This document shows, piece after piece, positions 224 through 33,114 of a stretch of DNA of 42,614 bases; within the stretch, counting starts at the first letter, position 1, and every line of letters starts with the position of its first letter. The stretch lies in sequence record SRR31156797_3011; one strand, 5' to 3'. The notes below the pieces were generated by a model, which saw only the letters and a program-made list of their open reading frames with translations, had not been told where the DNA came from and searched no databases. A program made the translations under genes and the position numbers.

Positions 224-392
224 CACTTAATTTACACTTTTATAATATAAAAAATGCTGTTTTTTGCTACAGTAAAATACACAGTTTTTGATGCTATGAT
301 GCTTTGATTTTCTTGTAGAATATACTATATATTTTGAATAAATATTTGTTTATTAAAGCATTATTTCGTGATGTTTCTAAATAAGCATTTAA

Positions 393-421
393 TTGACATA
401 TCTTTAGGTTAATTCTATAAT
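393..421 (+). promoter_or_regulatory. sigma-A promoter of the SBP/two-component operon
   Basis: TTGACA (393-398), 17 bp spacer, TATAAT (416-421): perfect consensus, 100 bp upstream of the ATG at 522. Confidence 0.82.
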
Positions 422-521
422 AATACTATTATACTTTTTAGCAGATGATTTATTGGTTGTTTGCCAACATAATTATTCTTTGTATTTTTTTATACTTTAA
501 TCTGCGCAAAAAGGAGAGAAA

Positions 522-5155: not shown

Positions 5156-5472
5156 ATAACTTGCGCTAAGAAAAAAGTAATCATTTTACCCTAATATTGA
5201 TATCAATATTAAATGTGCAGACAGACACAAAATTGCAACATTTCCACATAATGCTATTGACTTTGTTGGATGATTTGCATATTTTATCTTGACGTAATTT
5301 ATAAGATTTATCACTATAGCACAATTTTGTTGCATTAATTTGCTCTCAACCGATTAAGCAATATTGTCCAGTATTTAGCAACTGAGTGTATTTTATTTAG
5401 GTTCTCATAGTAGTAACATTTTATATAAGATATATAAGAGCGTTTGATTATATGAAGTAGGAGAATTGTACT

Positions 5473-7436: not shown

Positions 7437-8981
7437 ATGAAACACTTGAAGGTAACTACATTAGTTTTAGTACTAGTACTTGCTATGAGCTTTGCATTTA
7501 CAGCATGTACAAGTTCAGAACCAACAGAAGCTGAAACATCAACAGAAGCTGAAGCAACAGAAGAAGCAACGGAAGAAGCAACGGAAGAGCCAAAAGAAGA
7601 AGCTGTTGAATTGAAATGGTATGTAATCGGTTCTATAGAGCAAGCTGACCAAGATATGGTTGAGGAAAAAATCAACGAGTACACTTTAGAGAAGATTAAC
7701 TGTACAGTTGATATTATCTTTGTAGACTACGGTGATTATTCAGATGTTGTTGGTCCAAAACTAGCAACGGGTGAAGCAGTTGATATCGTATTCACATCTA
7801 ACTGGACAGGCGCAGCAAGCTATAGAGTTAATGCACCAATCGGTAACTTCGTAGACTTGACTGACTATTTGGCAGAAGGCGGAGTTCTATATGAAACTCG
7901 TCAAATACTAGGAGACGATTTCTGTGACGCAACAAAAATCGATGGTAAAAACTATGCTATACCATGTAACAAAGAGAAAGCTCACAACTGGGGTTTCTTG
8001 TTCAGAAAAGACATAGTTGAAGAACTAAGCTTAGATATTGACAGCGTAGAAACAACTGAAGACTTAGAGCCAATCCTTGCACAAGTTAAAGAAGCATATC
8101 CAGATATGATAGGCGTAGTAACAGCTACAGGTGAAGCACCATTCCGTCTGCTTGACTGGAATACATTCGTATCTGACAGCGTACCTGGAGCACTATACCC
8201 TGACAACCGTGACGATGTAGTAGTAAACCAATTTGCTACAGAAGAAGCAATCGCTCATTATAAGACAATGAAGGCTTACTATGATGCAGGTTATATCCGT
8301 GCAGACGCAGACACATATACTGACTGGAGTGGTGATTTAGCTTCAGGTAATGGTTTCTGTGTATCAGCATCAATGAAACCAGGTAAAGACATAGAGTTCT
8401 CATCAGGTTATGACTATGAATTCGTTCAAGTTGACTGTACAGATCCTGTTATGTCTAACCGTGAAACTGACGGTTCAATGATGGCTATTCCAATCGGATC
8501 AAAGAACCCAGAAAAAGCTGCTGAATTAATTAATCTAGCAAATACTGATAAGTATCTAAACAACTTACTAAACTATGGTATCGAAGACTATCACTTCACA
8601 AAGGTATCTGACAATGTTATCGAGCTAAGTGAAGATAATTCAGGTTGGAGACCAAACATCACTTGGGTATTCCCTAACCAGTTCATGAACTACACATTGA
8701 GCTCAGAAGACCCAGACAAGTTCGTAGAATTTGAAGCATACAATGGCTCTGCAATTCCTCTAAACAACTTAGGTTTCGTTTATGACAGTTCAGATATGGA
8801 AAACGTTGTAGCTGCTCTGACAGCTATTACAGACGAGTACACACCTAGACTTTACTCTGGTGCTGTAGACGATGTAGATACAGTTGTAGCTGAAATGAAC
8901 GATAAAATGGAAGCTGCAGGAATGGCTGATTTATTAGCTGACATCCAATCTCAATATGATGAGTGGTTAGCAGCTCAATAA
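7437..8981 (+). CDS. oligosaccharide ABC transporter substrate-binding lipoprotein (LplA/DUF3502-like C-terminus)
   Basis: Lipobox FTAC, acidic EATEE linker, NNLLNYGIEDYHF, C-terminal AAGMADLLADIQSQYDEW; GGAGG RBS. Confidence 0.9.
   Translation: MKHLKVTTLVLVLVLAMSFAFTACTSSEPTEAETSTEAEATEEATEEATEEPKEEAVELKWYVIGSIEQADQDMVEEKINEYTLEKINCTVDIIFVDYGDYSDVVGPKLATGEAVDIVFTSNWTGAASYRVNAPIGNFVDLTDYLAEGGVLYETRQILGDDFCDATKIDGKNYAIPCNKEKAHNWGFLFRKDIVEELSLDIDSVETTEDLEPILAQVKEAYPDMIGVVTATGEAPFRLLDWNTFVSDSVPGALYPDNRDDVVVNQFATEEAIAHYKTMKAYYDAGYIRADADTYTDWSGDLASGNGFCVSASMKPGKDIEFSSGYDYEFVQVDCTDPVMSNRETDGSMMAIPIGSKNPEKAAELINLANTDKYLNNLLNYGIEDYHFTKVSDNVIELSEDNSGWRPNITWVFPNQFMNYTLSSEDPDKFVEFEAYNGSAIPLNNLGFVYDSSDMENVVAALTAITDEYTPRLYSGAVDDVDTVVAEMNDKMEAAGMADLLADIQSQYDEWLAAQ
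7519..7600 (+). repeat. low-complexity 12-bp tandem repeat encoding the EATEE linker
   Basis: GAAGCAACAGAA/GAAGCAACGGAA units encode TEEATEEATEE after the lipobox. Confidence 0.7.
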
Positions 8982-9012
8982 TTTCAAAGTCAGAAATTAA
9001 TTAAATAAACAC

Positions 9013-9049
9013 AAAAAGAGAAGTCGTCCTTAATGGATGGCTTCTTTTT
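9013..9049. terminator. intrinsic terminator, probably bidirectional
   Basis: AAAAA-GAGAAGTCGTCC-TTAAT-GGATGGCTTCTT-TTT between the convergent SBP and AraC genes. Confidence 0.8.
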
Positions 9050-9118
9050 CAGTATTACAAAATCCTATAATTTTTTATACAAGCGTTTGTATAGTATCAG
9101 ATAAATAGATGTTATTTA

Positions 9119-9850
9119 TCACTTTATAATTTTTTCATCTTCTCTATACAGTTTCCTAAATTCCACAGGTGTATAGCCAGTATGTTTTTTGAAAACTTTA
9201 GAGTAATATCCATGATTGCAAAAATCGAAAATTGCTGCAATGTCTGTTATGCTGATGTCCCTGAATAGAAGAAATGATTTGGATGCTTCAACTTTCTTTC
9301 TTTGTATATAATCAGTAATTGACATGCCTACTTCTTTGTTGAATATTCGAGATATATAATCAGGTGATAGATGTGTTAAATCACTTAAATCACTTACTGA
9401 GATACTGGCTGTTACATTCTGATAAATATATTCAACCATTTTTGATACTGGATATTTATATTTGTTTTCAGTAGCATTATTCACCAGATCGGTAAAAATT
9501 CTCACCATATGTAATTCGTATTTCTTCAACTCTTTAACGGTATTTATGGTTTCTATGTTTCTGATGACCACATCACTCATATCGAATGCTTCCTCAGTAT
9601 ACACTCCTCCTTTTATTGCAGCACGAGTCAAAATAGTGCAGAGAGCTATCAGAGAGTTTCTTACTGAACGAACAGCATCGTAGGCTAATTGAGGTCTTTC
9701 CATCAGCAAAAAGCGGTTTATAACCGTCATTGCTGTATCATAATCACCTCTGGCGACATTTCGTACTAATTCAAGTTCTAATGAGTATGAAGGGTGAATA
9801 TATTGATAATTTATGTTTTTTATTTTTTCTCCAACAAGTGAATTCTTCAT
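9119..9850 (-). CDS. AraC-family transcriptional regulator, divergent from the second ABC operon
   Basis: C-terminal LSPDYISRIFNKEVG and YYSKVFKKHTGYTPVEFR; upstream minus-strand TGTTATAAT extended -10 (9892-9884). Confidence 0.9.
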   Translation of the reverse strand: MKNSLVGEKIKNINYQYIHPSYSLELELVRNVARGDYDTAMTVINRFLLMERPQLAYDAVRSVRNSLIALCTILTRAAIKGGVYTEEAFDMSDVVIRNIETINTVKELKKYELHMVRIFTDLVNNATENKYKYPVSKMVEYIYQNVTASISVSDLSDLTHLSPDYISRIFNKEVGMSITDYIQRKKVEASKSFLLFRDISITDIAAIFDFCNHGYYSKVFKKHTGYTPVEFRKLYREDEKIIK

Positions 9851-18317: not shown

Positions 18318-19481
18318 ATGACAAATAAATTGCAAATGCCAAAATATAAATGCTCAATAGTTAATCTAGTATCATCAATTCTTAATCATTACGGTGTGAG
18401 TACAAAATATGATACTATTGATGAAGTTAGTAGGGAATTCGAGAAGAACTACAGTCATATTGTATTATTTGTGTTTGATGGTTTAGGATCTAAGTCTCTG
18501 AATTATCATCTAGATAATAATTCATGCCTGAGAAAACATATTAAGCAGGAGATTCAATCAGTATTTCCACCAACTACTACTGCAGCAATGACTAGCTATT
18601 ACACTGGAGAAGCTCCCTGTTATCATGGATGGCTAGGATGGTCTTTGTATTTTAGGCGCTATGGGACAATGATAGATGTTTTTACTAATGCAAACTCTTA
18701 TACTGGGGATTCAATGAAAACCCAAGGCATAGCGTATAAGGAACTTCCTTATACGAATATTTTTGAAAAAATTGATAGAATGAAACATGATAAACTTAAA
18801 ATTCATAGTATAATGCCTGAAGAAATCAAATTTCAAAGCAACCCCAATATTCATCACCCAGTTACAAGTTTGAATGATATTTTAGAGACACTTAAATCAA
18901 TTACTTCTGAAAAAGATGATTCATTTACTATGGCATATTGGGATGAGCTGGATGCAATTATGCATAAAAAAGGACCATATGATGATGAGGTTGGTGAAGA
19001 AATTGGACGGATTGACGATTTTGTAAAGTCTTTAAGTGGTGAACTTAACGATTCCTTAATTATTGTATGTGCAGATCATGGTCAAATTGAAATACATAAA
19101 GAATACTATATTGATGAAGATAATGAAATAGATGAAATGCTGGTAATTCCACCCTGTATTGAGCCTAGATGTGTAAGTTTTTTTGTTAAGGATGAGTTCA
19201 AAGAAGTCTTTAGGGATAGATTTAATGCTAAATATGGAGATGAGTTCAAACTATTTAGCAACACTGAGGTTAAAGATATGGGACTCTTTGGGAGAGACAG
19301 TTATAACAGGAAATTCAGCAACTTTGTAGGTGATTATATCGCTTGCGGAATTGGGAATAGTCTTTTAAGATATAAGACTATTGATGGAAGAAAAGGGAAC
19401 TCCTATAAAGGACATCATGCAGGATTAACTGAAGAAGAAATGTTAATACCGCTGATATTAATTAACAGTAATGAGAACTAA
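18318..19481 (+). CDS. alkaline-phosphatase-superfamily protein (type I phosphodiesterase/nucleotide pyrophosphatase-like)
   Basis: LFVFDGLG, SVFPPTTTAAMTS (Thr nucleophile), DAIMH, CADHGQ, GHHAGLTEEEMLIPL. Confidence 0.88.
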   Translation: MTNKLQMPKYKCSIVNLVSSILNHYGVSTKYDTIDEVSREFEKNYSHIVLFVFDGLGSKSLNYHLDNNSCLRKHIKQEIQSVFPPTTTAAMTSYYTGEAPCYHGWLGWSLYFRRYGTMIDVFTNANSYTGDSMKTQGIAYKELPYTNIFEKIDRMKHDKLKIHSIMPEEIKFQSNPNIHHPVTSLNDILETLKSITSEKDDSFTMAYWDELDAIMHKKGPYDDEVGEEIGRIDDFVKSLSGELNDSLIIVCADHGQIEIHKEYYIDEDNEIDEMLVIPPCIEPRCVSFFVKDEFKEVFRDRFNAKYGDEFKLFSNTEVKDMGLFGRDSYNRKFSNFVGDYIACGIGNSLLRYKTIDGRKGNSYKGHHAGLTEEEMLIPLILINSNEN

Positions 19482-19701: not shown

Positions 19702-21072
19702 TTATTTGCTATTTATCAGATTTATGCCTGCATCGACTTCCTCATCTGATATTTTATGATTAGAATATCTAGCTTTTTCATATCCGTTCAAAAAAATTTC
19801 TTTATCACTTGTAAATTCATCGTGGGTGAGCAGTTCTCTTGCTGTAGTATTATTCTCAACAGGTTTGTTTTTGTCTTTTTCTTTTTGCAGTATAAATTTG
19901 TATATCAGCCGAACTTTTTGTCTATTATTTTTCAGATCTGAAAGTTTAGGTTTTGCTTTTAAGCGTTTTTTAAATTTATCAAACCGATTGCGTATAATTT
20001 CATTAAGTGTTGTTCTGTCAAACGTACTCTCCTCAGCATCGCTAAATTCAAGACGTGATGTATTTTCATCATTTCTATTTAAATAATTAAGTAGTGCTAC
20101 AAATGCTTTTTTCAACTTTTTAAATACTAAACGCAGTAAATAAAACAATAATATCACCGTTATTAATACACCAATTATAATTAGTATTTTCTCCATAATT
20201 TGCATAAATAATGATGTTTTTTTTGCTTCTCCTAGCAGACTAATGTCCATATTAACTTGCTGATCTAGGGTTTCCGTTGGTACTTCCTGTGCATTTGAAC
20301 CCGAGAATAGAAATACTATTATTTTTTTGATTATATTCATAATAAAAGCTTTAATGTGATCTATTGAAGATATTATTAGTACCAGTCCAATAAACAAAGC
20401 AGACATTGTGATATTGCCGTATAGTAAACCCTTTGAAAGTTTCCGATTTGTATTTGATATCCTCTTTACATTAATGATATTTAGCATAAATACTGAAATG
20501 ATTATCCAGATAATACCTGTCGTAATCATTATAGGCTTTAACTGCATGGAAGAGTCACATTTAAAAACATCTATTGAAAACAGGATTTGTACGATACAAA
20601 ATGAAACACATGATATTATAATAAGTGTATGAGATAACCCAATCTTTTCGGGTAATTTCATTCTGGAAAATGAAATAAGTGCAGTGACAAACTGCAGAAC
20701 TGAAAAAATAATAGTTAATAGTATACTATATGGCGATATAAAAAATGATAATGAAATAGCGACAAGTATAATTAAAAGTTTATATATGTTTTTCACGTGT
20801 TCAAGTAATATGGTTGTTCCCCATACTATTATCATTATTGCAAAAGACATAAATATGATAAAATGCATTTCATTAAAATATAAAAGTGGCGAAAAGATAA
20901 CAAGCTGTATACTGAGAGATATAACATATATAATGAATCCTGTCAGCAGTTTTACAAACTTACCTATTTTTCCTGGTATATAGTCTGTGCTTGAATACAT
21001 CTCATTATTTCTGCTTTTTCCGCTGCGATTGCTGCTGTCATAGGCATCATAATATTTTTTTGGATTACTCAT
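19702..21072 (-). CDS. multi-pass membrane protein with DUF4129-like C-terminus
   Basis: About 8 hydrophobic segments; C-terminal TAREL...YEKARYS; third gene of the MoxR/DUF58 operon. Confidence 0.7.
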   Translation of the reverse strand: MSNPKKYYDAYDSSNRSGKSRNNEMYSSTDYIPGKIGKFVKLLTGFIIYVISLSIQLVIFSPLLYFNEMHFIIFMSFAIMIIVWGTTILLEHVKNIYKLLIILVAISLSFFISPYSILLTIIFSVLQFVTALISFSRMKLPEKIGLSHTLIIISCVSFCIVQILFSIDVFKCDSSMQLKPIMITTGIIWIIISVFMLNIINVKRISNTNRKLSKGLLYGNITMSALFIGLVLIISSIDHIKAFIMNIIKKIIVFLFSGSNAQEVPTETLDQQVNMDISLLGEAKKTSLFMQIMEKILIIIGVLITVILLFYLLRLVFKKLKKAFVALLNYLNRNDENTSRLEFSDAEESTFDRTTLNEIIRNRFDKFKKRLKAKPKLSDLKNNRQKVRLIYKFILQKEKDKNKPVENNTTARELLTHDEFTSDKEIFLNGYEKARYSNHKISDEEVDAGINLINSK

Positions 21073-22156
21073 CTGAAGCAGTACCTCTTATTTCATGAAT
21101 GTATATTGAGTTCCCCATTTGCTTAAGTCGATTTATTTGTTCTTCAAGTCGACTTGACATATATGTTGACAGTATTATTATGTCTAAGTCTTTTATCTTT
21201 TTTTTAATTAAAGTATCTATATAAGTAAAGAATGTGAGCTTTCTAGAAATAACTATTCTGCTCATTACTTCCAGCATATTATTGATGCCGCCTGCACCTC
21301 CGTCCTGTGATATGTACACAGGCTTTTTCTCTTCATCATCACATAGATATCCGTTCGTTCCAAAGCCTGCCATAAGACCATTTTTCATAGCCCATATCAG
21401 CATAGTGGCTGCAAGGGATATTCCATATTCGATAGGGCCTGTTTCATTTTCCAAAATAACATCCCATTGATTTTCCGATATTTCAGTGTTAAGCAGGACA
21501 AGTAAACTGGGCGATGCAGAAAAATCTTTACTTTTTATTTTCAGCTCTCCTGTTTTGGCTGTTGCTCCCCAGTGTACATCCTTGAGATTGTCTCCCTTTG
21601 AATATGAACGTATACCGTTAATCAAAAATGGATCAGGAGCTATCCATCTCTTTACAAGTATATCGCCCAGTAATTGTTTTGATAGTTTTGGGATATCGTC
21701 AAATGATAGTAATTTCGGATAAATTGATATTTGTGCATTTAACTCAAAGTCTTGTAAAATCGCTGATGTTCCCAAGAAATTCCCGGTGGTAATGGCTGCA
21801 GAGCTTAAATTACATCTTCCTCTACGTACACATAAGGCATAATGAGTTCTTGTTATTTTTTTATATGAGCCCATAAAAAAAACGCTGTTATGATACATTT
21901 CTGAATTTATTGTGAGATTTTCCTGTGCGCTAAATGACAGTATACGAGATATTCTGGATTCGACTTTCAGCCATGATACAGGCATTAATTTATTGTTGGA
22001 GATTTCCTCAATCATGGTTATTTTATCACCAACGAAAGCAGACCTTGAACTGAAATGTCTGCTGTATGTGATGTTTTTAAAGCACAAATAATTAAATAGA
22101 GTATTATGTATTACTAAAATTATAAACAGAGTAAACGCTACTCGAATTATTGTCAT
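21065..22156 (-). CDS. DUF58 domain protein (MoxR-associated)
   Basis: N-terminal TM; RRG motif; GIRSYSKGDNLKDVHWGATAKTGELKIK. Confidence 0.88.
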   Translation of the reverse strand: MTIIRVAFTLFIILVIHNTLFNYLCFKNITYSRHFSSRSAFVGDKITMIEEISNNKLMPVSWLKVESRISRILSFSAQENLTINSEMYHNSVFFMGSYKKITRTHYALCVRRGRCNLSSAAITTGNFLGTSAILQDFELNAQISIYPKLLSFDDIPKLSKQLLGDILVKRWIAPDPFLINGIRSYSKGDNLKDVHWGATAKTGELKIKSKDFSASPSLLVLLNTEISENQWDVILENETGPIEYGISLAATMLIWAMKNGLMAGFGTNGYLCDDEEKKPVYISQDGGAGGINNMLEVMSRIVISRKLTFFTYIDTLIKKKIKDLDIIILSTYMSSRLEEQINRLKQMGNSIYIHEIRGTASDE

Positions 22157-23112
22157 TTCTCGTCCTTGCTCTCTGTTGGAACCTGTACATTCTCAAGTGA
22201 CTGTAACACTGCTTTTTGACCGTTTTCACTAGTAGTACCGTACCCTGCGGAGCATATTATTCTGTGAGATAATACGGGAACAGCGACTTCCTTGACATCG
22301 TCAGGGATTACAAAATCTCGTCCCTTTATAGCAGCGATCGCCTGACACATTACAAGCAGTGCCAAAAGCCCCCTAGGCGATACACCCAGCATGACACCAT
22401 CAATATTTCTTGTCATATCTACTATATCAACCATATATTCACGAACAACATCGGATACTTCTACAGTTTTTATAGCTTCCTGAGCATTCACTATGTCCTG
22501 CTTTGAAGCTACACTTTTTAATTCATCCAAAGGATCGTCATTAATAAATCTATCAATTATTTTCTTTGCATTAACTTTATCGGGATAACCCATTTTGGTT
22601 TTAATTATGAATCTGTCAAGCTGTGCTTCAGGCAGCTGAAATGTTCCGCTTGTGTCAATTGGATTTTGTGTTGCAAGCACAATGAAAGGTTCCTCCAGAT
22701 TATATGTTACATTATCCATAGTTACTTGTTTTTCCTGCATACACTCAAGTAAAGCTGATTGCGTTCTTGGAGTTGCACGATTTATTTCATCTGCCAATAA
22801 TATATTTGTGAATACAGGTCCTTTTATAAACACGAACTCATTATTTGATTGGTTAAAAACACTCGTTCCAGTAATATCAAAAGGCAATAAGTCAGGTGTA
22901 AACTGTATTCTGGAGAATTCGCAGTCTATAGATTTCGCCAGTGCTTTTGACAGTAGTGTCTTTCCAGTGCCGGGTACATCTTCTAGCAGTACGTGACCTC
23001 TGCAGAACAGAGCAGCCAGCATAAGATTTATTGTATTTTCGCTGCCAATTATTACACTCGATATATTCTTTTTTATAATCTGTGCTAATGTACTGATTTC
23101 ATTTATTTTCAT
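22153..23112 (-). CDS. moxR: MoxR-family AAA+ ATPase
   Basis: GHVLLEDVPGTGKT, RIQFTPDLLP, LLADEINRATPRTQSALLECM, ATQNP, LPEAQLDRF, SPRG. Confidence 0.95.
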   Translation of the reverse strand: MKINEISTLAQIIKKNISSVIIGSENTINLMLAALFCRGHVLLEDVPGTGKTLLSKALAKSIDCEFSRIQFTPDLLPFDITGTSVFNQSNNEFVFIKGPVFTNILLADEINRATPRTQSALLECMQEKQVTMDNVTYNLEEPFIVLATQNPIDTSGTFQLPEAQLDRFIIKTKMGYPDKVNAKKIIDRFINDDPLDELKSVASKQDIVNAQEAIKTVEVSDVVREYMVDIVDMTRNIDGVMLGVSPRGLLALLVMCQAIAAIKGRDFVIPDDVKEVAVPVLSHRIICSAGYGTTSENGQKAVLQSLENVQVPTESKDEK

Positions 23113-23500
23113 ATAAGAACCACCTTTATATCTCTAATGGATTGATTTAGTATTCACGTGATAATTTTGTTATTTAATAGTATCTATATATTTGTAAAAG
23201 TGTAGAATGTTTCTATGTAATTATATATTAATAAAAGTCATTATTCAAATTATTGTTGTATAAACTGTAACGAAGTGAATTGTAAATATTATTTTGGAGT
23301 TGTAAAATGAATCACAATCTGATACTCAATATTTTCATATAGGAATTTAATCCATTTAACTTATATGAGTTTAATACGATTAGCACAATGGTGCAAGTAG
23401 AGGGAACTCCTCAAATAGTATAACTATTAAACTATTAGTTTAATGTGAAATTCAGTGACAATGAAGTTATATTTATAGTATTATTTTTACGAGGTAGAAT

Positions 23501-24230
23501 ATGGATATTAGTGATTTAATTTATATAAACTGCAATTATAAAACATCAATAGTAATAACAAGCGGCATATCGTTTCATGAGTTTATTGAAGCAATTGAAA
23601 AGAAACCAAAGAATATATTGATAATAGATGACGCAAGTTATGGGGTGAATCGTGATAAACGTACAAATTGTGATTATTGTCTTGGTGAAGAAGTTATAAC
23701 TTTTTCTTAAAAAAATAATACTATTGAAATAGGCGATTTTAATTGGATTGAATTTAACAATCTTAAGTCTCTTGCTAAACTTACATCTGAAGAAATTGCC
23801 GAGCTGTATTATATTTCTAGGCAATGGGAACCAATAAATAGTTTTTACTTCGAAAAATTAATAATAACTATTTATACCTATCTCACGATGATGACTTTAT
23901 TAGTACAATTTGGTATAAAGATATTGATTATTATCACTCATTACTTGGCAGAGAAATTAGTAATAAGATTAGTTATTTATATGATTTAGTAATAGAACAT
24001 TTTGATTAGAACATAGCAGAACAATTGAGTACTTTATGTGGTGAAGGTATTTATATGAATTTTTCTACACCTTGCACCGATAAAGATAATTGTGTACTAA
24101 TTCCAATTTATCTTATGAAAAAGAGGGGAAATCTTGATCAGATTTGTTCCAAAATCAGAAAAAATAATTAGTACCAAGTCATATTCTTAAGTACAAAAAC
24201 AAATGGGGAATTATTGAAAACAATGAATGA
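23501..24230 (+). pseudogene. disrupted conserved hypothetical Firmicute protein
   Basis: GAGGT RBS + ATG. After an in-frame TAA at 23708-23710 the frame continues GDFNWIEF...LTSEEIAELYY. A frameshift near 23860 gives NNYLYLSHDD, a TAG follows at 24007-24009, and a further shift leads to ...KWGIIENNE*. Confidence 0.7.
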
Positions 24231-24357: not shown

Positions 24358-26586
24358 TCATGCCATATCATCAGATGCTGAATCATTTTTATCTAATGGC
24401 TTAGCTTTAATTTCATAGGCTTTGATTTCTTTTAGTTTATATGGCTTTTCACTTTCTACATGGGACAGGAATTCAATATCATGCATTTTGTACTTGGTTT
24501 TACTATGCTTTGCAAGTTCTATGGTAATGTCATATTTATTAGTAATCAGACCTTCACCGTTTAATTTTACAGTTCTGTTTTTATTAGTTTCATTCTGGTC
24601 GCTGTAATCACATGAAATTGTAGCATCAGATAATTTGCATAATTGATCTACGACTGTATGTTCATTTTTGTATTGACTTTCCGATGCAGTAAAAATAACA
24701 TCAATACCGTAGTTTTTCATGATGTGTACAAGTGCAGATAGAAACAATCTGCCTGATGTTGGACTTTCGACTAAAAATGGGTAGCTTATTTCCATTAGTT
24801 TTAAATCCAATATAGTTATTCTTCCGATTTCATAAGCATGAATAATCTCACTTATTTCATTTATGAAGGTTTCGGGGCTTAAAGCACCGCTTTTGAATAT
24901 AATCTCATATAATTTAGCTTTGGGAGGGATGTGATTAACCTTATCCATGCTATTTTTAATACTCCAGCCAGATAGAACATATTTATGTGGTTTAAAACCG
25001 TTATAGACCTCTAAGGGTTCGAATTGGATAGTTTTTTGCTTTGAATTAGAAAATTCCATTCTGTCTAATAAATTACTGCAAAGGCGTACTCCTCTTGTTT
25101 TGAGGTTATCTTTATCTGCCATTCTGATTATTAGACCATTGCAGTTATCGTTATAAATACCAGATATTAATGATCCTATTGCTATATCGGATTTATATAA
25201 ACCGCTTTTGCCAACGATAGAGATTATTTTAGCTGTAGACTTTTCATTGTCTTTTCCCCATGTGAAGTGACTAGGCAGTACATAGTTCATTTCCTTTATA
25301 CCAAATAAATTACTAGCAGACATATCATCTTTGTTTTTTCCATCATTATTATTAGAGATTATATTCTTTCGCTCAAGTATATTCCCTAAGCCGTCGGTTC
25401 CAAATACTATGTAATGTAAGGAGGGCAAAACTCTTAATTCCTTTTTTAACATTAAGTCAGGAAATGGATTTTCTAACAAAGGCCCTTTTTTTCTATGTGA
25501 TGAGGTACATTCCTCAATTTTGTAAAGGTGTCTTCCAAGAACATGCTTTACATGGCGAGATTTTGTTACCTCAAGGTAGGATACATTATAATCATGTACA
25601 TGGGTTTTTGTAAGGTTTATAATTACATCACATAGAAATTGTGCTGCTGACATATCAACACTCTCATATTTAATATAATCGTTGCTAAATTTCCCCAGTG
25701 TAAACACACCAATGATTTTATTTCTCTTGAATAAGGAAAATAGTCGATGAAGCTGTTCATGCTTCAGGATTTTCTCACCGAAGTTATTTAAACTATCAAT
25801 TACAAAAAGCTTGATTCTACAGGTTTCATTATTTTGTTTGCTGCAGGCTTCATTATACTTCCTTGCTGCTTTTACGATAGTTTCTAGTTCCTCAAATCGC
25901 TTTTGAAACAAATTGTCCCGTTCATCATCATTTATAGTAATACCGCGGGGGCTAAGCTGAGGCATCAATATCTGAGGTGTAATTTCATTATTATACTCTA
26001 GTATTTCACTGATATTATTTACTATATCAGCGCTGTCATTACGTGTGATAGGACACATGAAATTGATTTTTAACTGGTCACTTTTGTCTATGTTATTTCT
26101 TACCATGCTTTTACATAACAGACGATTATCCATATCTAATGAGTAGTAAATGGAAATTCCGTTGTTAAACTCCGAGGTGCAAGCGGCTGCAAATTGAAAA
26201 GCAAGTGTAGATTTGCCAACTCCCGGCTCTCCAATTATTAATATATTGCCAGAACCTTCATCCAGGCTGGTGCTTGGGATTTTGATTCCTCCTGTATATA
26301 CAAAAGAGTTATAATCATTCATATCTTCTATTGAAGCGTCAGATGGAATAGAGTCACCTGAACCATATATAATATGTTCATATTGATTCAGACGAGTTGA
26401 TTTTCTTATCTTACCATGAATCATAATGTTATTAGTCTGATTGTACTCTTTTATACAATTGCCTGGACAATTACTATCTCCAGCACTTTCTGCATTCATA
26501 ATAATATCTAAGTAGTTTCCTAGAATAATACTATTGTTTGTATCGAAGTTTACTATAGTAGTTTTTTCATTATTTATATTTTTCAT
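24358..26586 (-). CDS. tandem KaiC/RecA-superfamily ATPase (first domain intact, second degenerate)
   Basis: Domain 1: ILIIGEPGVGKST (Walker A), LFVIDSL (Walker B), QFLCDVIINL, LEVTKSRHVKHVLGRH, RVLPSL. Domain 2: FGIKEMNYVL, SIVGKSGLYKS, LSDATI. Confidence 0.8.
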   Translation of the reverse strand: MKNINNEKTTIVNFDTNNSIILGNYLDIIMNAESAGDSNCPGNCIKEYNQTNNIMIHGKIRKSTRLNQYEHIIYGSGDSIPSDASIEDMNDYNSFVYTGGIKIPSTSLDEGSGNILIIGEPGVGKSTLAFQFAAACTSEFNNGISIYYSLDMDNRLLCKSMVRNNIDKSDQLKINFMCPITRNDSADIVNNISEILEYNNEITPQILMPQLSPRGITINDDERDNLFQKRFEELETIVKAARKYNEACSKQNNETCRIKLFVIDSLNNFGEKILKHEQLHRLFSLFKRNKIIGVFTLGKFSNDYIKYESVDMSAAQFLCDVIINLTKTHVHDYNVSYLEVTKSRHVKHVLGRHLYKIEECTSSHRKKGPLLENPFPDLMLKKELRVLPSLHYIVFGTDGLGNILERKNIISNNNDGKNKDDMSASNLFGIKEMNYVLPSHFTWGKDNEKSTAKIISIVGKSGLYKSDIAIGSLISGIYNDNCNGLIIRMADKDNLKTRGVRLCSNLLDRMEFSNSKQKTIQFEPLEVYNGFKPHKYVLSGWSIKNSMDKVNHIPPKAKLYEIIFKSGALSPETFINEISEIIHAYEIGRITILDLKLMEISYPFLVESPTSGRLFLSALVHIMKNYGIDVIFTASESQYKNEHTVVDQLCKLSDATISCDYSDQNETNKNRTVKLNGEGLITNKYDITIELAKHSKTKYKMHDIEFLSHVESEKPYKLKEIKAYEIKAKPLDKNDSASDDMA

Positions 26587-26597
26587 TAATTCTACCC

Positions 26598-27929
26598 CTA
26601 GTCTTTTATTAAGTTAAGTATCTTCTCCCATCGCTTATCAATGTACTTATCTATATAAACAGCATCAAATTGAGAGTCAGCAAGATCTTTATAGATAGTT
26701 TTATTATCATTACTCATTGGCTTATATTGAATGCTCCAGACATTTTCATCGCAGTATATATCAAAATCAACTTCTTTTTCTATGAATTTATTTAATAATG
26801 ATAAGCGTCTTACAGCACACTTAACTTTATCAGTATCTTTTATATCTTCATGGATGCAGTTTACGATTGAATTATAATACTGGTAGCCTGCTTCAAAAAT
26901 ACCAATATTCAGCATGAACATAGCACGGAATACGTCGTAGCAATAATCTTCATCTAGTATTGGCTCTATAGCAAGTTTCGTAAAAAGTTGCTTAGTAGAT
27001 TCGTTCTTTTCTACTTTGAACAAGTGGCTATTGCACTCTATATACCATTGAGCTATAGGTATATGCATTATGTGCAGCTCATTTCGTATAAGCTTTATAT
27101 CCTTAGAATTCTTATATAAATCGTTCGCTAAAACATAAGCTCTTGATTTTTCATATACTTCTACTGCAGCATGTTCACTACCATTTGAGCAAGTTTGCAG
27201 GTAGTCTCTTAATATGCCATGTATATCAAGCTCTCCGTCAAAATCACTGGCAGAAAAGCTGTTTTTGTTTATGACAGTACAAGCCATTTTACTATATTTA
27301 TCAAAATATGTACTGGCTATATGATTCCTAAAGTCACCAACAATACCTTTTTTGTCATTAATATAGTCGGGAACAACACGAGTATATGAACTATCAAGCC
27401 TATCTGCTAAAAATAACAAAGCACTTAATAATTTTTCTCTAACAAAACCATATGAGTAAACAGATGCATTGTCTTCACGCATAACTATTATGTTTTTTTG
27501 TGAGTATTGAGATTCGCTGTAATCATGGAATATAGCAATTCTAGCTATAATGGCAGCCATACGCTGAGATTCTATTCCTAGTACTGCCCAACTCTTTCGA
27601 ATCATATTATAGGACTTTGCGGCATGACTAGTCTTTTTATCGCCCGTACTATTGCACTTGCCAATATCGTGGAATAAAATTGAGTTTAATAAAATATATA
27701 GCTCCAAAGCGTTTAACTCAATTTCAGCATGTCCAAATTCTTCGTTGTACAACAGCATATTTACATTCTTTGTTACTCCGAGAATATGAGGGAGCGAATT
27801 ATACGAATCAAGTTTAGGGATTACATTTGGAAGCCATTCTTCTGTAGCTTTTTTTAAGCTTTTTTCATATGTTGCATAAAGCTGTGGATCCAAATTCTTT
27901 AAATCTATTTCCATAGTTCTCATTTTCAT
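26598..27929 (-). CDS. HD-superfamily phosphohydrolase of the HD-CE type, with an uncharacterised C-terminal region
   Basis: PHILGV...ELYILLNSILFHDIGK...SHAAKS...IAIFHD...LLSALLFLADRLD..R follows the HD-CE motif order; GAGGTAGG RBS; 11 bp upstream of the ATPase. Confidence 0.78.
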   Translation of the reverse strand: MKMRTMEIDLKNLDPQLYATYEKSLKKATEEWLPNVIPKLDSYNSLPHILGVTKNVNMLLYNEEFGHAEIELNALELYILLNSILFHDIGKCNSTGDKKTSHAAKSYNMIRKSWAVLGIESQRMAAIIARIAIFHDYSESQYSQKNIIVMREDNASVYSYGFVREKLLSALLFLADRLDSSYTRVVPDYINDKKGIVGDFRNHIASTYFDKYSKMACTVINKNSFSASDFDGELDIHGILRDYLQTCSNGSEHAAVEVYEKSRAYVLANDLYKNSKDIKLIRNELHIMHIPIAQWYIECNSHLFKVEKNESTKQLFTKLAIEPILDEDYCYDVFRAMFMLNIGIFEAGYQYYNSIVNCIHEDIKDTDKVKCAVRRLSLLNKFIEKEVDFDIYCDENVWSIQYKPMSNDNKTIYKDLADSQFDAVYIDKYIDKRWEKILNLIKD

Positions 27930-28265
27930 ACCTACCTCAAATATATACTATGATACTATCATATTTTCGCTAATATGTAACCATATATTACTATAAATAA
28001 TAGAAAAATACAAATGATGTTAGTAAGCACTATAAATGTATTATAAAAGGAAACGGCAGAAGAAAGAAAACACCAATACATAGTACTAAATATTAGGCGA
28101 TTGGGATATAGGATACGGGACAGAGCCGACGGAGAAGAAAAAAGATAATTATTTATTATTAGCACAAGAAAATAGACATTTTTTTATAAATCATTATCAA
28201 GAGTACAAAAATATATGGTAAGATATTATTTATAAAAATAAAACTAATAAAAACAAGGAGTAAAA

Positions 28266-29111
28266 ATGCAGGCACTGTTCCAAAAATATGTGTTTGAAGA
28301 ACACTTCCCGTTCAATGTCCTTATAGCAGATGATATAGAATTCCCACCTCATTGGCATGAAGACTATGAGATAATTTATAATCTTGATGAACCATTTGAA
28401 ATAACCATAGCAGATGAAATCTATAAGGTTGAAAACAGAGACATTGTTATTATCAGCGGTAATGTAGTACATTCCTTTGTCTTTCAGCCAAAACCTCGAA
28501 AGCGAATAATACTTCAGTTCAATGCTGATTTATTAGGGATGTATTCTGATTTTGATAAGCACATAAGAATAGTAAATCCGCTTCTAAAGAAAGAGAATGA
28601 TATAAACAATACTTATAGTCTTTTGGAAAATCAGATATTAGCAATAGAGAAAGAAAACCGAGATAAGAAAAATGGATATAAGCTTGCAATAATGGCGAGA
28701 TTGTATGACTTGGTTTCTATCTTCATACGTAATGTTGAGATACAAAAATGCAGCGATGATGAATTAAAGAATAATACTTCTAGACTTGCCCGTCTGGATA
28801 AAGTATTTACCTATATTGATAAAAACTATAATAAAAAAATCTCATTGGACAAAATAGCAGAGATTGCAGGCTACAGTACATATCATTTCACCAGATTCTT
28901 TAAAGATGCAACATGCATGACTTTTGTTTCTTATCTAAATAACTATAGAATATATAAGGCATCCGTAATGCTGAAAGAGAGCGATGAAATGATTACAGAG
29001 ATTGCATACAGCGTAGGATATGAGAGCATAAAGACTTTTAACAGAGTATTTAAAGAATTGAAGAAAATCTCTCCAACTGAATACAGAAAGCAAAATATGA
29101 GAAGTGAATAG
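28266..29111 (+). CDS. AraC-family regulator with N-terminal cupin ligand-binding domain
   Basis: FPPHWHEDYEIIY cupin motif; YSTYHFTRFFK, VGYESIKTFNRVFK; AAGGAG RBS. Confidence 0.93.
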   Translation: MQALFQKYVFEEHFPFNVLIADDIEFPPHWHEDYEIIYNLDEPFEITIADEIYKVENRDIVIISGNVVHSFVFQPKPRKRIILQFNADLLGMYSDFDKHIRIVNPLLKKENDINNTYSLLENQILAIEKENRDKKNGYKLAIMARLYDLVSIFIRNVEIQKCSDDELKNNTSRLARLDKVFTYIDKNYNKKISLDKIAEIAGYSTYHFTRFFKDATCMTFVSYLNNYRIYKASVMLKESDEMITEIAYSVGYESIKTFNRVFKELKKISPTEYRKQNMRSE

Positions 29112-30913: not shown

Positions 30914-32266
30914 ATGCTTAAAATTGATAAAGGATTTATAAATACTTTCCTTAAGATAGCAATACCTATGTCGTTACAGCAGCTGATGCTTGCATCCCTC
31001 AGTATGTTAGATACGATAATGGTAGGGCAGCTAGGTGATGCTGCTATAGCAGCAGTAGGTATTGGTAATCAGGTATACTTTCTTGTTTATCTATTGCTGT
31101 TGGGAATAAGCGGTGGATGCTCATTATTTGCATCGCAGTTTTATGGTAAAGGTGACTATAGAAGCATTAAGAGTGTGATAGGTTTGGGATTGCTTATTGG
31201 TGTATTGCTTATTTCTATGTATTCTGTATTTACTATTCTTTTCCCTATTGAAGTTATTGGAATATTTACCAGCGATAATATGGTAATAGAATATGGAGCA
31301 GATTACCTTAGGATAATATCCTTCTCATTTGTAATTGTAACTATTACTACGGTCTATTCAACTGTTGTAAGAAGTACAGGAAATGCTCTCCTTCCTATGG
31401 TTATCAGCTTTTTTGGAATCGGGTTGAATACTTTTCTCAACTATATAATGATATTTGGTAAGTTTGGATTGTCACCTATGGGGGTCAGGGGAGCAGCATA
31501 CGCAACATTGATATCCAGAATTGTTGAAATGCTACTGCTTATTGTTTTGATTTATACCAGAAATAGATTAATCGCAGGAAATATAAAGGAAATGTTCACA
31601 CTCCCAAGAAAATTGATAAATAGTTTCTTGACTCAATCAGGGTTGATGATTGTCAAAGATTTAGTATGGGGATTAGGAATAACACTGTATTTAGTTATTT
31701 ATGGCAGGTTAGGGACAATGGCATTGGCTGCAACTAATATCCAACAGACAGTTGGAAATATGATGTATGTATTTATACACGGTATAGCTCAGGCGTGCCT
31801 GATACTGGTTGGACAGAAGTTAGGCGAAGGACAAAGAGATACTGCAAATGAGTATGCTATGTTCTTTACTAGAATAACTATATATGTAGCTATTGTAGTT
31901 TCTGCTGTGATGCTGCTAATACGTCCAATAATACTAATGCCATTTAATGTTTCCCAAAGCGTACGACTATTAGCAAATGATATGTTGCTAGTAAAAGGTC
32001 TTATATTTACTATAGTCTGCTATAATACTGTGGCGGTTATTGGGATAATGAGAAGCGGCGGAGATACTAAGTTCAGCTTAGTTATGGATATATTTGCAGT
32101 ATGGGGAATCGGGCTGATTTTGGCTGTTGTAACAGGATTAGTATTGAAGTTATCTGCGGCTTGGGTTTTAGCTACTATTTCTAGTCAGGAAATTTTTAAG
32201 TATTTCTGTCTGAGAAAGAGAGTTGCTTCAAAGAAGTGGATGAATAATCTGGTAAATGAATTGTAG
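30914..32266 (+). CDS. MATE-family efflux transporter
   Basis: IAIPMSLQQL, DTIMVGQLGDAAIAAVG, MGVRGAAYATLISR, RSGGDTK; about 12 TM. Confidence 0.93.
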   Translation: MLKIDKGFINTFLKIAIPMSLQQLMLASLSMLDTIMVGQLGDAAIAAVGIGNQVYFLVYLLLLGISGGCSLFASQFYGKGDYRSIKSVIGLGLLIGVLLISMYSVFTILFPIEVIGIFTSDNMVIEYGADYLRIISFSFVIVTITTVYSTVVRSTGNALLPMVISFFGIGLNTFLNYIMIFGKFGLSPMGVRGAAYATLISRIVEMLLLIVLIYTRNRLIAGNIKEMFTLPRKLINSFLTQSGLMIVKDLVWGLGITLYLVIYGRLGTMALAATNIQQTVGNMMYVFIHGIAQACLILVGQKLGEGQRDTANEYAMFFTRITIYVAIVVSAVMLLIRPIILMPFNVSQSVRLLANDMLLVKGLIFTIVCYNTVAVIGIMRSGGDTKFSLVMDIFAVWGIGLILAVVTGLVLKLSAAWVLATISSQEIFKYFCLRKRVASKKWMNNLVNEL

Positions 32267-32316: not shown

Positions 32317-33114
32317 ATGCATACTTTTGGTACTATTTATTATGATTTGCAAAAAGCATCAATAGATACACATAAACCGTTGATGGTTCATTCATCTATG
32401 AAGGCGATTGGACAAGTTAGCGGCGGAGCTGATACGGTCATAGATGCACTAATGGCATATATGAGAGATGGATTGCTTTTGCTTCCTACTCATTCTTGGA
32501 GTGATAGCAGTCTACAAGGCGGAGTGTATGACCCAAAGATTGAACCTGCATGTGTAGGTATTATACCCAATCTGTTTATGAAAAGACCAAACGTATATCG
32601 ATCAATTCATCCTACGCATTCTGTTGCCGCTTATGGGAATAGAGCACAATCCTATGTAAGTTTTGATGATTATATACTAAATGAGCAAAAAGCTACCCCA
32701 TGCGATTGGAGAGGGTGCTTTGGGAGATTATACAGCGAGGATGCAAATATACTATTTTTGGGAGCTCCTCTTACTACTAATACTTTTCTTCATGGCGTTG
32801 AAGAATATATAGGCATAGACAACAGAATAAATAATAAGTATAGAATCATAAAAATCAAAACAGATAATAATACGGATATAGAAGTCAAGGTATACGGACA
32901 TCATTCAACTGGTGGTGATGTTTCGCAGAATTTTGATAAGATAAAGGATGCATTGCTATACAAGAATTATATGCACTATGCTAAAATAGGAGATGCAGAC
33001 TGCTATGTGCTCAAAGCAAGAGAAACAGCTGATGTTGTTATGCATTTGCTGAAAAAAGATAAGGATTTATTTCTTGACAAGAGGGAAGTGCCCAAAAGCT
33101 GGTATATGGAGTAG
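32317..33114 (+). CDS. AAC(3)/Antibiotic_NAT-family N-acetyltransferase (YokD-like)
   Basis: LMVHSSMKAIG, GGADTVIDAL, LLLPT, RSIHPTHSVAAYG, NTFLHGVEE; AAGGAG RBS. Confidence 0.9.
   Translation: MHTFGTIYYDLQKASIDTHKPLMVHSSMKAIGQVSGGADTVIDALMAYMRDGLLLLPTHSWSDSSLQGGVYDPKIEPACVGIIPNLFMKRPNVYRSIHPTHSVAAYGNRAQSYVSFDDYILNEQKATPCDWRGCFGRLYSEDANILFLGAPLTTNTFLHGVEEYIGIDNRINNKYRIIKIKTDNNTDIEVKVYGHHSTGGDVSQNFDKIKDALLYKNYMHYAKIGDADCYVLKARETADVVMHLLKKDKDLFLDKREVPKSWYME

Follow-up and report, generated by a model that had tools for sequence, protein, structure and literature searches.

An HD-CE phosphohydrolase gene paired with a tandem KaiC-like ATPase gene: a possible new conflict or defence system gated by an ATPase

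HD-CE is also found at the N-terminus of NTPase-based architectures that differ from the one described here. Scanning of six such HD-CE proteins revealed HATPase_c_3 in three, NACHT in one and no further domain in two. The HATPase_c_3 matches agree with the link between HD-CE and Hsp90-like GHKL ATPases that was stated in an earlier reading of the present DNA, made from its letters and open reading frames (the sequence-only reading). The NACHT protein consists of HD-CE, NA-iREase1, NACHT and pentapeptide repeats (L062 type). A preprint states that in tripartite systems of this sort a different NTPase switch can stand in for the STAND NTPase. An OLD-family nuclease gene and an Eco57I-type methylase gene adjoin two of the scanned HD-CE proteins, and a search for KaiC-like neighbours of the other HD-CE proteins gave 0 matches in 20 fetched regions.

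Elsewhere the KaiC-like double-domain fold is familiar in the role of a slow timer and phospho-switch. Archaeal KaiC-like ATPases have reportedly been proposed as signal-transduction hubs. In the literature searched, no tested function was found for the HD-CE effector domain or for KaiC-like proteins of bacteria outside the clock, and the pair of genes described below would provide a first handle on both.

Gene order and flanking DNA

The window, that is, the whole stretch of 42,614 nucleotides that was analysed (sequence record SRR31156797_3011), contains two co-oriented ORFs on the minus strand. The first gene (26598..27929) encodes an HD-CE phosphohydrolase of 443 aa, a putative effector, and the second (24358..26586) encodes a tandem KaiC-like ATPase of the RecA superfamily of 742 aa, a putative oligomeric switch or sensor; both assignments draw on the ORFs, Pfam matches, homologues and structure models. 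The ORFs confirm the arrangement given in the sequence-only reading, with the genes 11 bp apart. The spacer (26587..26597, minus strand) contains by direct reading the Shine-Dalgarno-like, or ribosome-binding-like, stretch GGGGTAGAA, and GAGGTAGGT is found ahead of the HD-CE gene. The two genes form one operon. Its promoter is presumed, from position only, to lie in the upstream intergenic region that the HD-CE gene has in common with a divergent AraC-family gene (27930..28265), where a scan found 40 promoter-like sequences against 36.6 +/- 6.7 expected, which is no excess over chance.

The AraC-type regulator (28266..29111, plus strand) was identified in a scan of the window neighbours. On the other side of the operon, ORF pieces interrupted by stops and frameshifts (23498..24171, plus strand) look like a pseudogene, and no Pfam family matched them. 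These are the two flanks that had been named from the letters, and the pair does stand alone between them as claimed; the description holds locally only, in that the ATPase is part of a far larger family. Imperfect direct repeats of 40 nt flank the operon on both sides (24176..24215 and 28188..28227, plus strand), with 70% identity and a spacing of 4012 nt; the likeness of the two copies ends at about 40 nt, and the repeat pair may be due to chance in AT-rich DNA. Besides AraC, the neighbours within the window include MoxR/DUF58, MatE and acetyltransferase. The claim that no Hsp90-like gene, kaiA, kaiB or kinase lies beside the pair also stood, as none of these domains was found among the 10 window neighbours scanned.

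Domains of the two proteins

The Pfam HD-CE profile (PF24391) matched residues 48–244 of the HD-CE protein, corresponding to profile positions 11–253 of 263, with E 5.4e-13 and 49.7 bits (cut-off 27). A search with this protein found 27 homologues, and residues H48, H87, D88, K91, H102, H135, D176, and D179 were invariant in 16 of 16 aligned homologues. Metal binding in the HD superfamily follows the pattern H...HD...H...H...D, and the residues H48, H87, D88, H102, H135, D176, and D179 are present in the protein. Judged by these residues the catalytic motif is intact, and the motif series that had been read earlier, an HD pair with downstream H and D residues, is thereby substantiated. The catalytic domain covers approximately aa 1–244 (27198..27929, minus strand) on the basis of the conserved residues and the HD fold. 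The AlphaFold2 model of the protein has a mean pLDDT of 76.3. Foldseek on this model by itself gave weak matches (best E 0.012), and the HD fold is supported by VIA-align, which matched the model to PPX/GppA C-terminal domains with Z 11.1–11.9 (188 aligned and rmsd 4.7 at Z 11.9), to cyclic-nucleotide phosphodiesterases with Z of about 9–10, to the HD domains of Cas3 and Cas10d with Z 7.5–9.1, and to SpoT and HD-GYP with Z 7.3–7.4. Such matches of a model to an HD fold do not identify the substrate of the enzyme.

The remainder of the HD-CE protein, approximately aa 245–443 (26601..27197, minus strand), is by homologue conservation a subfamily-specific C-terminal region in which E284, W295, E298, E322, C371, and R375 are invariant. 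Other HD-CE proteins match the profile of the window subfamily only to position ~225, and the HD-CE partners of long ATPase forms retain the C-terminal region (hhalign probability 100, E 7e-58). Residues 324–420 of the model weakly resemble the winged helices of ScpB (70–84 aligned) at Z 7.1–7.7, a range that may be chance, and the region may contain a winged helix. It is a candidate adaptor or docking region.

The ATPase matched the Pfam KaiC profile (PF06745) in three stretches with E 2.7e-17 and 63.4 bits against a cut-off of 26.6. A homologue search with the ATPase found 67 proteins, many of which also match DnaB_C (PF03796) and AAA_25. The best PDB sequence match is KaiC 8db3 (E 2.1e-15), with DnaB and RadA also among the PDB matches; the matches to DnaB and RadA are confined to the P-loop region and fall under the Pfam cut-offs. 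The structure model (pLDDT 75.5, pTM 0.79) has the full two-domain KaiC 3k0c_D as its top Foldseek match (E 2.8e-20), with ~610 columns aligned and a TM of 0.60 on the target. The two RecA/KaiC-type domains of the sequence-only reading are thus supported by profile and fold alike, with the refinement that a canonical Walker A is present in the first domain only.

Column conservation marks off an N-terminal region peculiar to the short ATPase forms, approximately aa 1–105 (26272..26586, minus strand), with the conserved motifs DYLD..LLN and Y.GGI..P; with long ATPase forms the alignment starts no earlier than about query position 97. The two domains that follow were delimited by residue conservation in 25 sequences. 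The first, approximately aa 106–395 (25402..26271, minus strand), contains the Walker A motif GEPGVGKST, an acidic residue at 151, the Walker B residue D264, and K342-S-R344, a block which aligns with the K-Y-R-G block of KaiC. Residues G122, G124, K125, T127, D264, K342, and R344 occur in all 25 sequences, 22 of which have D or E at position 151, and the domain is predicted to be catalytically active. The second, approximately aa 449–735 (24382..25242, minus strand), has the deviant P-loop GKSGLYKSD and D594, and the K-x-R block is absent. G459, S461, G462, K465, S466, D467, and D594 are found in 25/25 sequences. In this P-loop, of the form G-x-S-G-L-[Y/F]-K-S-D, an aromatic residue at 464 (Y in 14/25, F in 11/25) replaces the expected glycine, and the second domain is predicted to be non-canonical, with a regulatory or ligand-binding role.

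Conservation and distribution of the pair

In 18 of 20 related loci the HD-CE gene is either fused to the ATPase gene or its direct upstream neighbour. In genomes it was immediately upstream on the same strand at all 10 loci, and at 10 metagenome loci it was adjacent in six, fused in two and absent in two. An HD-CE neighbour is absent beside two divergent ATPase relatives (L081 and L082). The two ORFs overlap in 11/14 related loci when longest-ORF starts are used. Three single proteins contain both PF24391 and PF06745, two fused loci (one encoding 1264 aa) match the ATPase and HD-CE subfamily profiles together, and a quick tree requires at least two separate fusion events. One fused locus adjoins an RHS/PT-HINT polymorphic-toxin gene. 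Because they are adjacent or fused in 18 of the 20 loci, the two genes are supported as a conserved functional unit at the level of gene order. Their co-divergence is strong (Mantel r = 0.979 over 16 pairs, a value reached in 0 of 5000 permutations), a correlation which would equally be expected for any two co-inherited genes. No third gene beyond HD-CE was common to the loci among 11 compared, and no conserved integrase or transposase was found beside the pair across the loci compared.

The pair is a rare and patchy accessory module. The ATPase was present in one of 401 genomes of one family, the sole carrier being the seed, and in two of 28 species of one genus, all 28 of which have the flanking gene. 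In one locus the pair, together with two small ORFs, is enclosed by genes of 159 aa and 452 aa. These two enclosing genes are 41–48 bp apart in two other loci, which represent the empty site, and the junction is filled with other cargo in five more, including a large serine recombinase in one of them. The pair sits in a variable hotspot open to mobile DNA. The module is known in gut and anaerobic Clostridia and in other phyla. Searches of plasmids, phages and IMG/VR contigs gave no match to it.

Ten loci gave 115 neighbours, and the Pfam families listed foremost for these were housekeeping or metabolic (among them YqfD, PhoH, YbeY, enolase, ArgRS, and beta-galactosidase); Kai families were absent among the 25 foremost Pfam families listed. 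PADLOC matches in these 115 neighbours, taken without a background rate, were one each of PDC-S02, MTase_I, mad3, PDC-M51A and PD_DExK and two of mad2. The sequence-only reading had looked to homologue neighbourhoods for pair conservation, patchiness and defence-island enrichment; the first two were found, and enrichment was not seen in these few PADLOC matches.

The ATPase family comprises 259 representative clusters (50% identity, E<=1e-30), most of which are long forms of 1100–1500 aa with a C-terminal extension. Six of 14 family members looked up appear to have an HD-CE partner on the same contig. The long forms share the aromatic-before-lysine P-loop (GPRGTFK.T). Their extension resembles solute-binding proteins in an Atlas feature search (score 0.95) and gives weak matches to MalE-type binding proteins (E 0.0019 and 0.0098), and it may be solute-binding-like.

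Possible function and relation to known systems

The pair has the look of a conflict or defence system that is gated by an ATPase and has not been described before. The preferred reading, which is given an even chance, is that of a self-contained and horizontally mobile two-gene conflict module of the defence type, combining an NTPase switch of a new kind with an HD effector. A defence role is suggested and not asserted, because most of the neighbouring genes are ordinary chromosomal ones and searches of phages and plasmids did not turn up the module; the physical complex, ring formation, the identity of the sensing domain and the substrate are put forward in the same spirit. The tandem KaiC-like protein would form an oligomeric ring, probably a hexamer, in which the first ATPase domain would hydrolyse ATP and the degenerate second domain would serve in regulation or in the sensing of a ligand, a task to which the C-terminal solute-binding-like domain of the long relatives may contribute. 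The ring would hold the metal-dependent HD-CE phosphohydrolase, probably by way of the C-terminal region of that enzyme, and on a trigger such as infection it would turn on the enzyme, leading to degradation of nucleotides or nucleic acids. A wider claim is made tentatively, its chances being put somewhat short of even: the pair would be the founding example of an undescribed multi-phylum immune family in which a ring of KaiC-like double-domain ATPases takes the place of the STAND, Hsp90-like or GTPase switch of known systems and gates an HD-CE enzyme whose destruction of nucleotides or nucleic acids kills or arrests the infected cell, and in which long forms sense an infection-made small molecule through a cytoplasmic domain.

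Small-molecule signalling would account for a solute-binding-like sensor no less well than phage sensing. The pair could be an accessory signalling or stress module and not immunity. Its ATPase would sense a metabolite or nucleotide by way of the degenerate second domain or, in the long forms, the solute-binding-like domain, and would control an HD hydrolase that degrades a nucleotide messenger, for example of the (p)ppGpp, cyclic di-nucleotide or polyphosphate type. The closest structural neighbours of the HD domain, PPX/GppA C-terminal domains and cyclic-nucleotide phosphodiesterases, with SpoT and HD-GYP also present, would suit such a role, as would the extension of the long forms, the chiefly metabolic and housekeeping neighbourhoods, and the hub proposal reportedly made for archaeal KaiC-like ATPases (Makarova 2017). 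Extreme patchiness and a mobile-DNA hotspot are nevertheless unusual for a metabolic regulator, the scanned HD-CE domains are N-terminal in GHKL or NACHT proteins, one of them beside an OLD-family nuclease gene, and the pair has no conserved third gene for a target, transporter or cyclase. This role is considered rather unlikely. A Cas3-like motor-nuclease, in which a KaiC/DnaB/RadA-like ring translocates on nucleic acid, HD-CE cuts the threaded strand and the winged-helix-like part aids DNA binding, would also be defence, acting on foreign DNA and not through abortive infection. Matches of many homologues to DnaB_C and AAA_25, the DnaB and RadA sequence matches in the PDB, the Cas3/Cas10d HD structures and the ScpB likeness are consistent with it. 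It is nonetheless judged distinctly improbable: the DnaB and RadA matches are limited to the P-loop region and are sub-cut-off in Pfam, the winged-helix match is in a Z range that can be chance, the Cas3 HD models reach only E 0.04–0.17, the second P-loop is deviant, and the best overall match is two-domain KaiC. KaiC is not known to be a translocase.

The tight operon with overlapping ORFs, the hotspot taking in mobile DNA and the polymorphic-toxin gene next to one fused locus would also be in keeping with an addiction module of the toxin-antitoxin kind, belonging to a mobile element, in which an HD-CE toxin and a neutralising ATPase together stabilise the carrier island. Stable fusions of the partners fit a labile antitoxin poorly, however, and a double ATPase of 742 aa is much bigger than typical antitoxins; with no match in the plasmid and phage searches and no conserved adjoining integrase or transposase, such a module is regarded as very unlikely. 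A housekeeping role under vertical inheritance, as in nucleotide metabolism or DNA repair, would agree with the chromosomal site amid ordinary genes, but it is contradicted by the patchy distribution (1/401 and 2/28, against 28/28 for flanking genes, with the site empty in congeners) and is hardly credible.

If the ATPase-gated conflict module is confirmed, the tandem KaiC-like ring would bring the kinds of NTPase switch in the effector-NTPase-sensor immunity of prokaryotes to four or five. If the role is not defence, the pair would be a compact, mobile, ATPase-controlled hydrolase of nucleotides or nucleic acids. The 259 clusters, the natural fusions and the sensor-bearing long forms suit structural and biochemical work.

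The sequence-only reading did not recognise the pairing as a named system, and that view has survived comparison. Neither protein has a significant match in PADLOC-DB v2.0.0 (best mad8, E 3.4e-4, and Cas3 HD, E 0.04), a comparison that leaves out systems described after 2023 and the DefenseFinder models, and a literature search for the HD-CE/KaiC-like pairing found no paper describing it. The sole PADLOC model weakly matching the ATPase family is mad8 of the MADS system (PDLC04140), to which the window ATPase scores E 3.4e-4 and the long forms score 1e-5 to 1e-7, mainly in the P-loop part. The pair resembles Cas3 in coupling an HD-fold domain to an ATP-driven protein, and the fold comparison of the HD-CE model also brought up HD structures of Cas3; the Cas3 HD models of PADLOC and NCBIfam gave the HD-CE protein only E 0.04–0.17, the window ATPase is not an SF2 helicase, and CRISPR-Cas genes are not conserved near the pair. 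With circadian KaiC the ATPase has in common tandem RecA-like domains and the Walker A, Walker B and K-x-R features of the first domain, and it differs in its deviant second P-loop, an extra N-terminal ~105 aa and an HD hydrolase as partner. Identity with clock KaiC was rejected (NCBIfam equivalog NF006799, 31.7 bits against a cut-off of 408), the second Walker A being aromatic (Y/F) in 25/25 sequences where circadian KaiC is canonical in both domains.

HD-CE proteins with an NTPase in cis also come close in architecture. The HD-CE-GHKL proteins (~680–940 aa) likewise have an N-terminal PF24391 domain coupled to an NTPase and, like the window pair, are rare accessory genes, one of which adjoins an OLD-family nuclease gene. 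Their NTPase is a GHKL domain fused in cis in contrast to the separate tandem RecA/KaiC-like protein of the window, where no HATPase_c family matched either protein in Pfam, and they are without the C-terminal region of the window HD-CE subfamily. NACHT/STAND and NB-ARC profiles reached the window proteins only in the P-loop region and below their cut-offs (nSTAND3 19.8 against 27.2 bits, NACHT 13.6 against 26.7, NB-ARC 14.3 against 23.5). The STAND/NACHT L062 type nevertheless has the same combination of an HD-CE effector with an NTPase switch, and the long relatives of the window ATPase have a putative sensor as well; this type is one protein, whereas the window module is divided between two genes, with a double RecA-fold protein as its NTPase.

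The two-gene operon and its surroundings

Two minus-strand ORFs are present in the window at the positions assigned to them by the sequence-only reading, an HD-CE gene at 26598..27929 (443 aa; Pfam HD-CE PF24391, E 5.4e-13, 49.7 bits against a cut-off of 27) and a KaiC-like ATPase gene at 24358..26586 (742 aa; Pfam KaiC PF06745, E 2.7e-17, in three stretches). The 11-bp spacing reported between them was also borne out by the sequence. The spacer contains the Shine-Dalgarno-like GGGGTAGAA, and GAGGTAGGT stands ahead of the HD-CE gene, the first of the pair. Promoter and terminator scans of the relevant strand gave nothing above chance. An imperfect 40-nt direct repeat with 70% identity (24176-24215 and 28188-28227) brackets the operon almost exactly; the similarity does not reach beyond 40 nt, and the repeat may be due to chance in AT-rich DNA.

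On one side of the operon, an AraC-type regulator gene (28266..29111, +) is followed by genes for a 573-aa protein of no assigned family, a MatE efflux transporter (30914-32266, +) and, adjoining the latter, an aminoglycoside 3-N-acetyltransferase-family protein (32317-33114, +; PF02522, E 1.6e-52). On the other side, four consecutive broken ORF pieces (23498..24171, +), with an in-frame stop at 23708-23710 and frame changes, are convergent with the ATPase gene. Pfam gives none of the pieces a family, even at E<=1; together they look like the remains of a gene some 220 aa long. Beyond them, just downstream of the pair, a three-gene operon (19702-23112, -) encodes a MoxR-type AAA+ ATPase (AAA_3, E 2.6e-64; bpMoxR also matches, less strongly), a protein with a weak DUF58 match (E 0.0033, under the cut-off) and a multi-pass membrane protein of 456 aa that belongs to no family. 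The MoxR/DUF58 operon is not kept next to the pair in other loci. The product of the gene at 18318-19481 (+), 387 aa long, has a domain of the type I phosphodiesterase/nucleotide pyrophosphatase family and, more weakly, matches PglZ (E 2.3e-07). BREX-type systems include PglZ; no other BREX-type gene was seen among the window neighbours scanned.

The HD-CE protein and the KaiC-like ATPase

Residues H48, H87, D88, K91, H102, H135, D176 and D179 are invariant in 16 aligned HD-CE homologues. In an AlphaFold2 model of the protein (mean pLDDT 76.3), the HD fold makes up the N-terminal two thirds (VIA wide). The model was most similar to the C-terminal domain of exopolyphosphatase/GppA (Z 11.9), followed by cyclic-nucleotide phosphodiesterases (Z about 9-10) and the HD domains of Cas3 and Cas10d (Z 7.5-9.1; all VIA), and a Foldseek search with it returned nothing at E<=0.001. 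About 200 C-terminal residues, with E284, W295, E298, E322, C371 and R375 invariant, are particular to this HD-CE subfamily; residues 324-420 of the model weakly resemble the winged helices of ScpB (Z 7.1-7.7).

HD-CE domains also occur in other settings. Of 401 genomes sampled from the phylum, 19 contain PF24391 (17 above cut-off), as against 0 of 14 control genomes. Twenty of the 23 PF24391 places were fetched, all but the pair itself and two very short fragments, and none of the ORFs at these 20 places encodes an ATPase of the pair's family. Six other HD-CE proteins were scanned. Three have a GHKL domain (HATPase_c_3), which confirms, in this sample, the link between HD-CE and Hsp90-like ATPases stated in the sequence-only reading; two have no other family, and one combines HD-CE with NA-iREase1, NACHT and pentapeptide repeats. 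The direct neighbours of two of the six include an OLD-family nuclease and an Eco57I-type methylase. Overall, HD-CE acts as the N-terminal 'business end' in architectures built around an NTPase. In two loci the HD-CE gene is 410-417 aa long and overlaps the next gene, downstream of it, whose product of 817-949 aa has no Pfam family (L066:12-2462 (-); L067:2666-5512 (-)), and this arrangement may be a second uncharacterised HD-CE two-gene module. Genome G001, the source of locus L002, has one copy of the pair and two more HD-CE proteins (C41:193456-194400 and C29:438-1292), whose open frames span 1192 and 955 aa; an Eco57I-type methylase gene adjoins one of them.

The model of the ATPase (pLDDT 75.5, pTM 0.79) aligns with the two-domain full-length KaiC 3k0c_D over about 610 columns (E 2.8e-20), and the best sequence match in the PDB is also KaiC (E 2.1e-15). 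The Walker A motif, the Walker B residue D264 and the K342-S-R344 block, which aligns with K-Y-R-G of KaiC, are kept in the first domain of 25 of 25 ATPases, and position 151 is acidic in 22 of the 25. The P-loop of the second domain is invariant yet deviant (G-x-S-G-L-[Y/F]-K-S-D), and the K-x-R block is absent from this domain. Because the motifs are kept in the first domain, whereas the second has a deviant P-loop without K-x-R, the first domain probably hydrolyses ATP and the second may be regulatory.

When 1.84 billion representatives were searched in full with HMMER, the ATPase profile matched 259 proteins at E<=1e-30; the number rose to 500 at 1e-10 and to 1266 at 1e-3. The top matches are short forms similar to the ATPase in the window (about 690-780 aa) and N-terminal HD-CE fusions. 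Among the 150 matches listed, most are long forms of 1100-1500 aa: the tandem ATPase occupies the N-terminus, and the extension at the C-terminus (450-800 aa) matches no Pfam or PADLOC family. The aromatic-before-lysine second P-loop is kept in the long forms. Language-model features liken the extension to solute-binding proteins (score 0.95, graded a lead by the tool itself), and at about positions 772-858 of the profile there are weak matches to MalE-type binding proteins (E 0.0019 and 0.0098); these two weak, concordant hints point to a solute-binding-like extension. The alignment of P0025, a 571-aa HD-CE protein, covers the partner subfamily from end to end and takes in its C-terminal region (probability 100, E 7e-58). 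For six of 14 long forms looked up, the longest contig has the same size as that of one of 46 relatives of P0025 (26708, 12353, 18601, 399000, 36497 and 12128), and these identical contig sizes suggest an HD-CE partner for the long forms too. Anaerolineales is the label of one long form and Candidatus Sumerlaeota that of one HD-CE homologue, so the ATPase/HD-CE family spans phyla.

Linkage, distribution and genomic site of the module

A pattern scan of one genome per species yielded 10 loci with the ATPase, all from metagenome-assembled genomes labelled Clostridia, Lachnospiraceae, Eubacteriales or Eubacterium, save one labelled only 'uncultured bacterium'. The neighbourhood survey proposed by the sequence-only reading found the pairing conserved, with HD-CE directly upstream on the same strand in 10/10 loci. 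No further gene is common to these loci, except where the close relatives L005 and L007 are syntenic. Among 10 metagenome loci, six have the same arrangement, two are fused (L080, 1264 aa, and L079, which ends at a contig edge) and two, with divergent ATPases of 28-30% identity on short contigs, have no HD-CE gene. The database proteins P0088, P0097 and P0102 carry both Pfam domains and are also fusions. In a quick maximum-likelihood tree of the ATPase parts, with 'sep_' rows taken from the ATPase alignment and context checked for some of them only, one clade holds five fusions and P0097 is placed elsewhere; P0304 is on a long branch and its placement is unsafe. Well-supported branches of this tree force at least two fusion events.

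The divergences of both proteins are closely correlated across 16 pairs (Mantel r 0.979, reached by 0 of 5000 permutations). The two ORFs overlap in 11 of 14 pairs if longest-ORF starts are assumed, and 12 of 27 HD-CE homologues have a longest contig identical in size to that of an ATPase homologue. A complex prediction with residues 1-400 of the KaiC-like protein and the full HD-CE protein, run without alignments and with an uncertain HD-CE fold, scored 0.00, a value that speaks neither for nor against binding.

Two metagenome contigs carry other genes beside members of the family. In L080, an RHS-repeat protein with a PT-HINT pretoxin domain (2-5764, +; RHS_repeat E 1.1e-121) is encoded directly upstream of the fused gene, so that a polymorphic-toxin locus adjoins the module in this contig. 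L082, the source of P0090, forms a clade of its own with L081, P0101 and P0104 in the quick tree. A calcineurin-like phosphoesterase (3-857, +; Metallophos E 5.8e-08) takes the place of HD-CE in L082, 115 bp upstream of a divergent KaiC-like gene (975-3155). It may have taken over from HD-CE as effector or be a neighbour with no connection; given this spacing and no region in common with the HD-CE partners (hhalign probability 0.2), an effector swap was set aside as a lead only.

The distribution of the module is sparse. At E<=1e-40 the ATPase profile matched one genome, the seed, among 401 sampled from the family of G001. In the Bacillota sample of 401 genomes no long form was found; the long-form profile matched just the short-form ATPase gene of the seed genome. 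In the genus of genome G002 the pair is present in 2 of 28 species and a flanking gene in 28 of 28. Relatives were not found on plasmids, phages or IMG/VR contigs. The site was compared in genomes of related loci, with 20 of the 26 pair-lacking species fetched (G391, G409, G413, G416, G417 and G431 were left out). A conserved 159-aa gene abuts the flank gene x12664 in L019, L021, L022, L024, L025 and L031, with gaps of 7-78 bp, and is separated from it by 249 bp in L020; in L027, L028 and L030 its direct neighbour is a conserved 452-aa-type gene, 41-48 bp away. The pair and two small unassigned ORFs (about 4.6 kb) lie exactly between the 159-aa and 452-aa genes in L007, and in L005 a further 5.7 kb of small genes precede the pair. 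Other DNA occupies the pair's junction elsewhere: a Sel1-repeat protein gene in L015 (5061-7271, +), ORFs without an assigned family in L018 and L029, and in L026 6.3 kb of inserted DNA that encodes a large serine recombinase (8284-9510, +; TP901-1 type, E 1.6e-24). The junction downstream of the 159-aa gene is a variable hotspot in this genus. Since the pair is found at the sites of few species and other cargo at the same junction, the module is accessory DNA at a site where mobile DNA enters, and parsimony suggests that it was gained rather than lost there.

Candidate roles and comparison with known systems

The pair may be an effector-plus-NTPase-switch conflict module, in which a KaiC-like ring would gate the HD-CE hydrolase, a reading to which we give about even credence. 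It is tempered by the ordinary genes that predominate near the pair, by the few of 115 neighbours that match PADLOC models and by the lack of plasmid, phage or IMG/VR relatives. The PPX/GppA and PDE-like fold neighbours of HD-CE and the solute-binding-like domain would also suit a small-molecule signalling module with no role in immunity, which we consider somewhat unlikely. A Cas3-like motor-nuclease is quite doubtful. We regard a toxin-antitoxin-like addiction module as improbable, and a housekeeping pair, contradicted by the distribution, is hardly credible.

From the sequence alone the pair was not recognised as a named system, and this has held so far. PADLOC v2 gave no match, and a pair of HD and KaiC-like proteins was not found described in the literature, with supplements and subscription journals outside the scope. 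Searches with PADLOC-DB v2 and NCBIfam gave both proteins no match beyond P-loop-level noise. Literature searches for 'HD-CE' returned unrelated uses only, and those for KaiC with conflict, defence or antiphage likewise returned no description of the pair. Both 'HD-CE' and 'KaiC' are absent from the main text of Kaur 2020 and Kaur 2021, the supplements of which could list such architectures. Neither window protein has the defining features of circadian KaiC, of HD-CE-GHKL proteins, of STAND/NACHT proteins, of Cas3 or of any PADLOC v2 system. The pair, an earlier listing of which is possible in supplements, subscription journals or DefenseFinder models, would follow the logic of effector, NTPase and sensor with a new NTPase.
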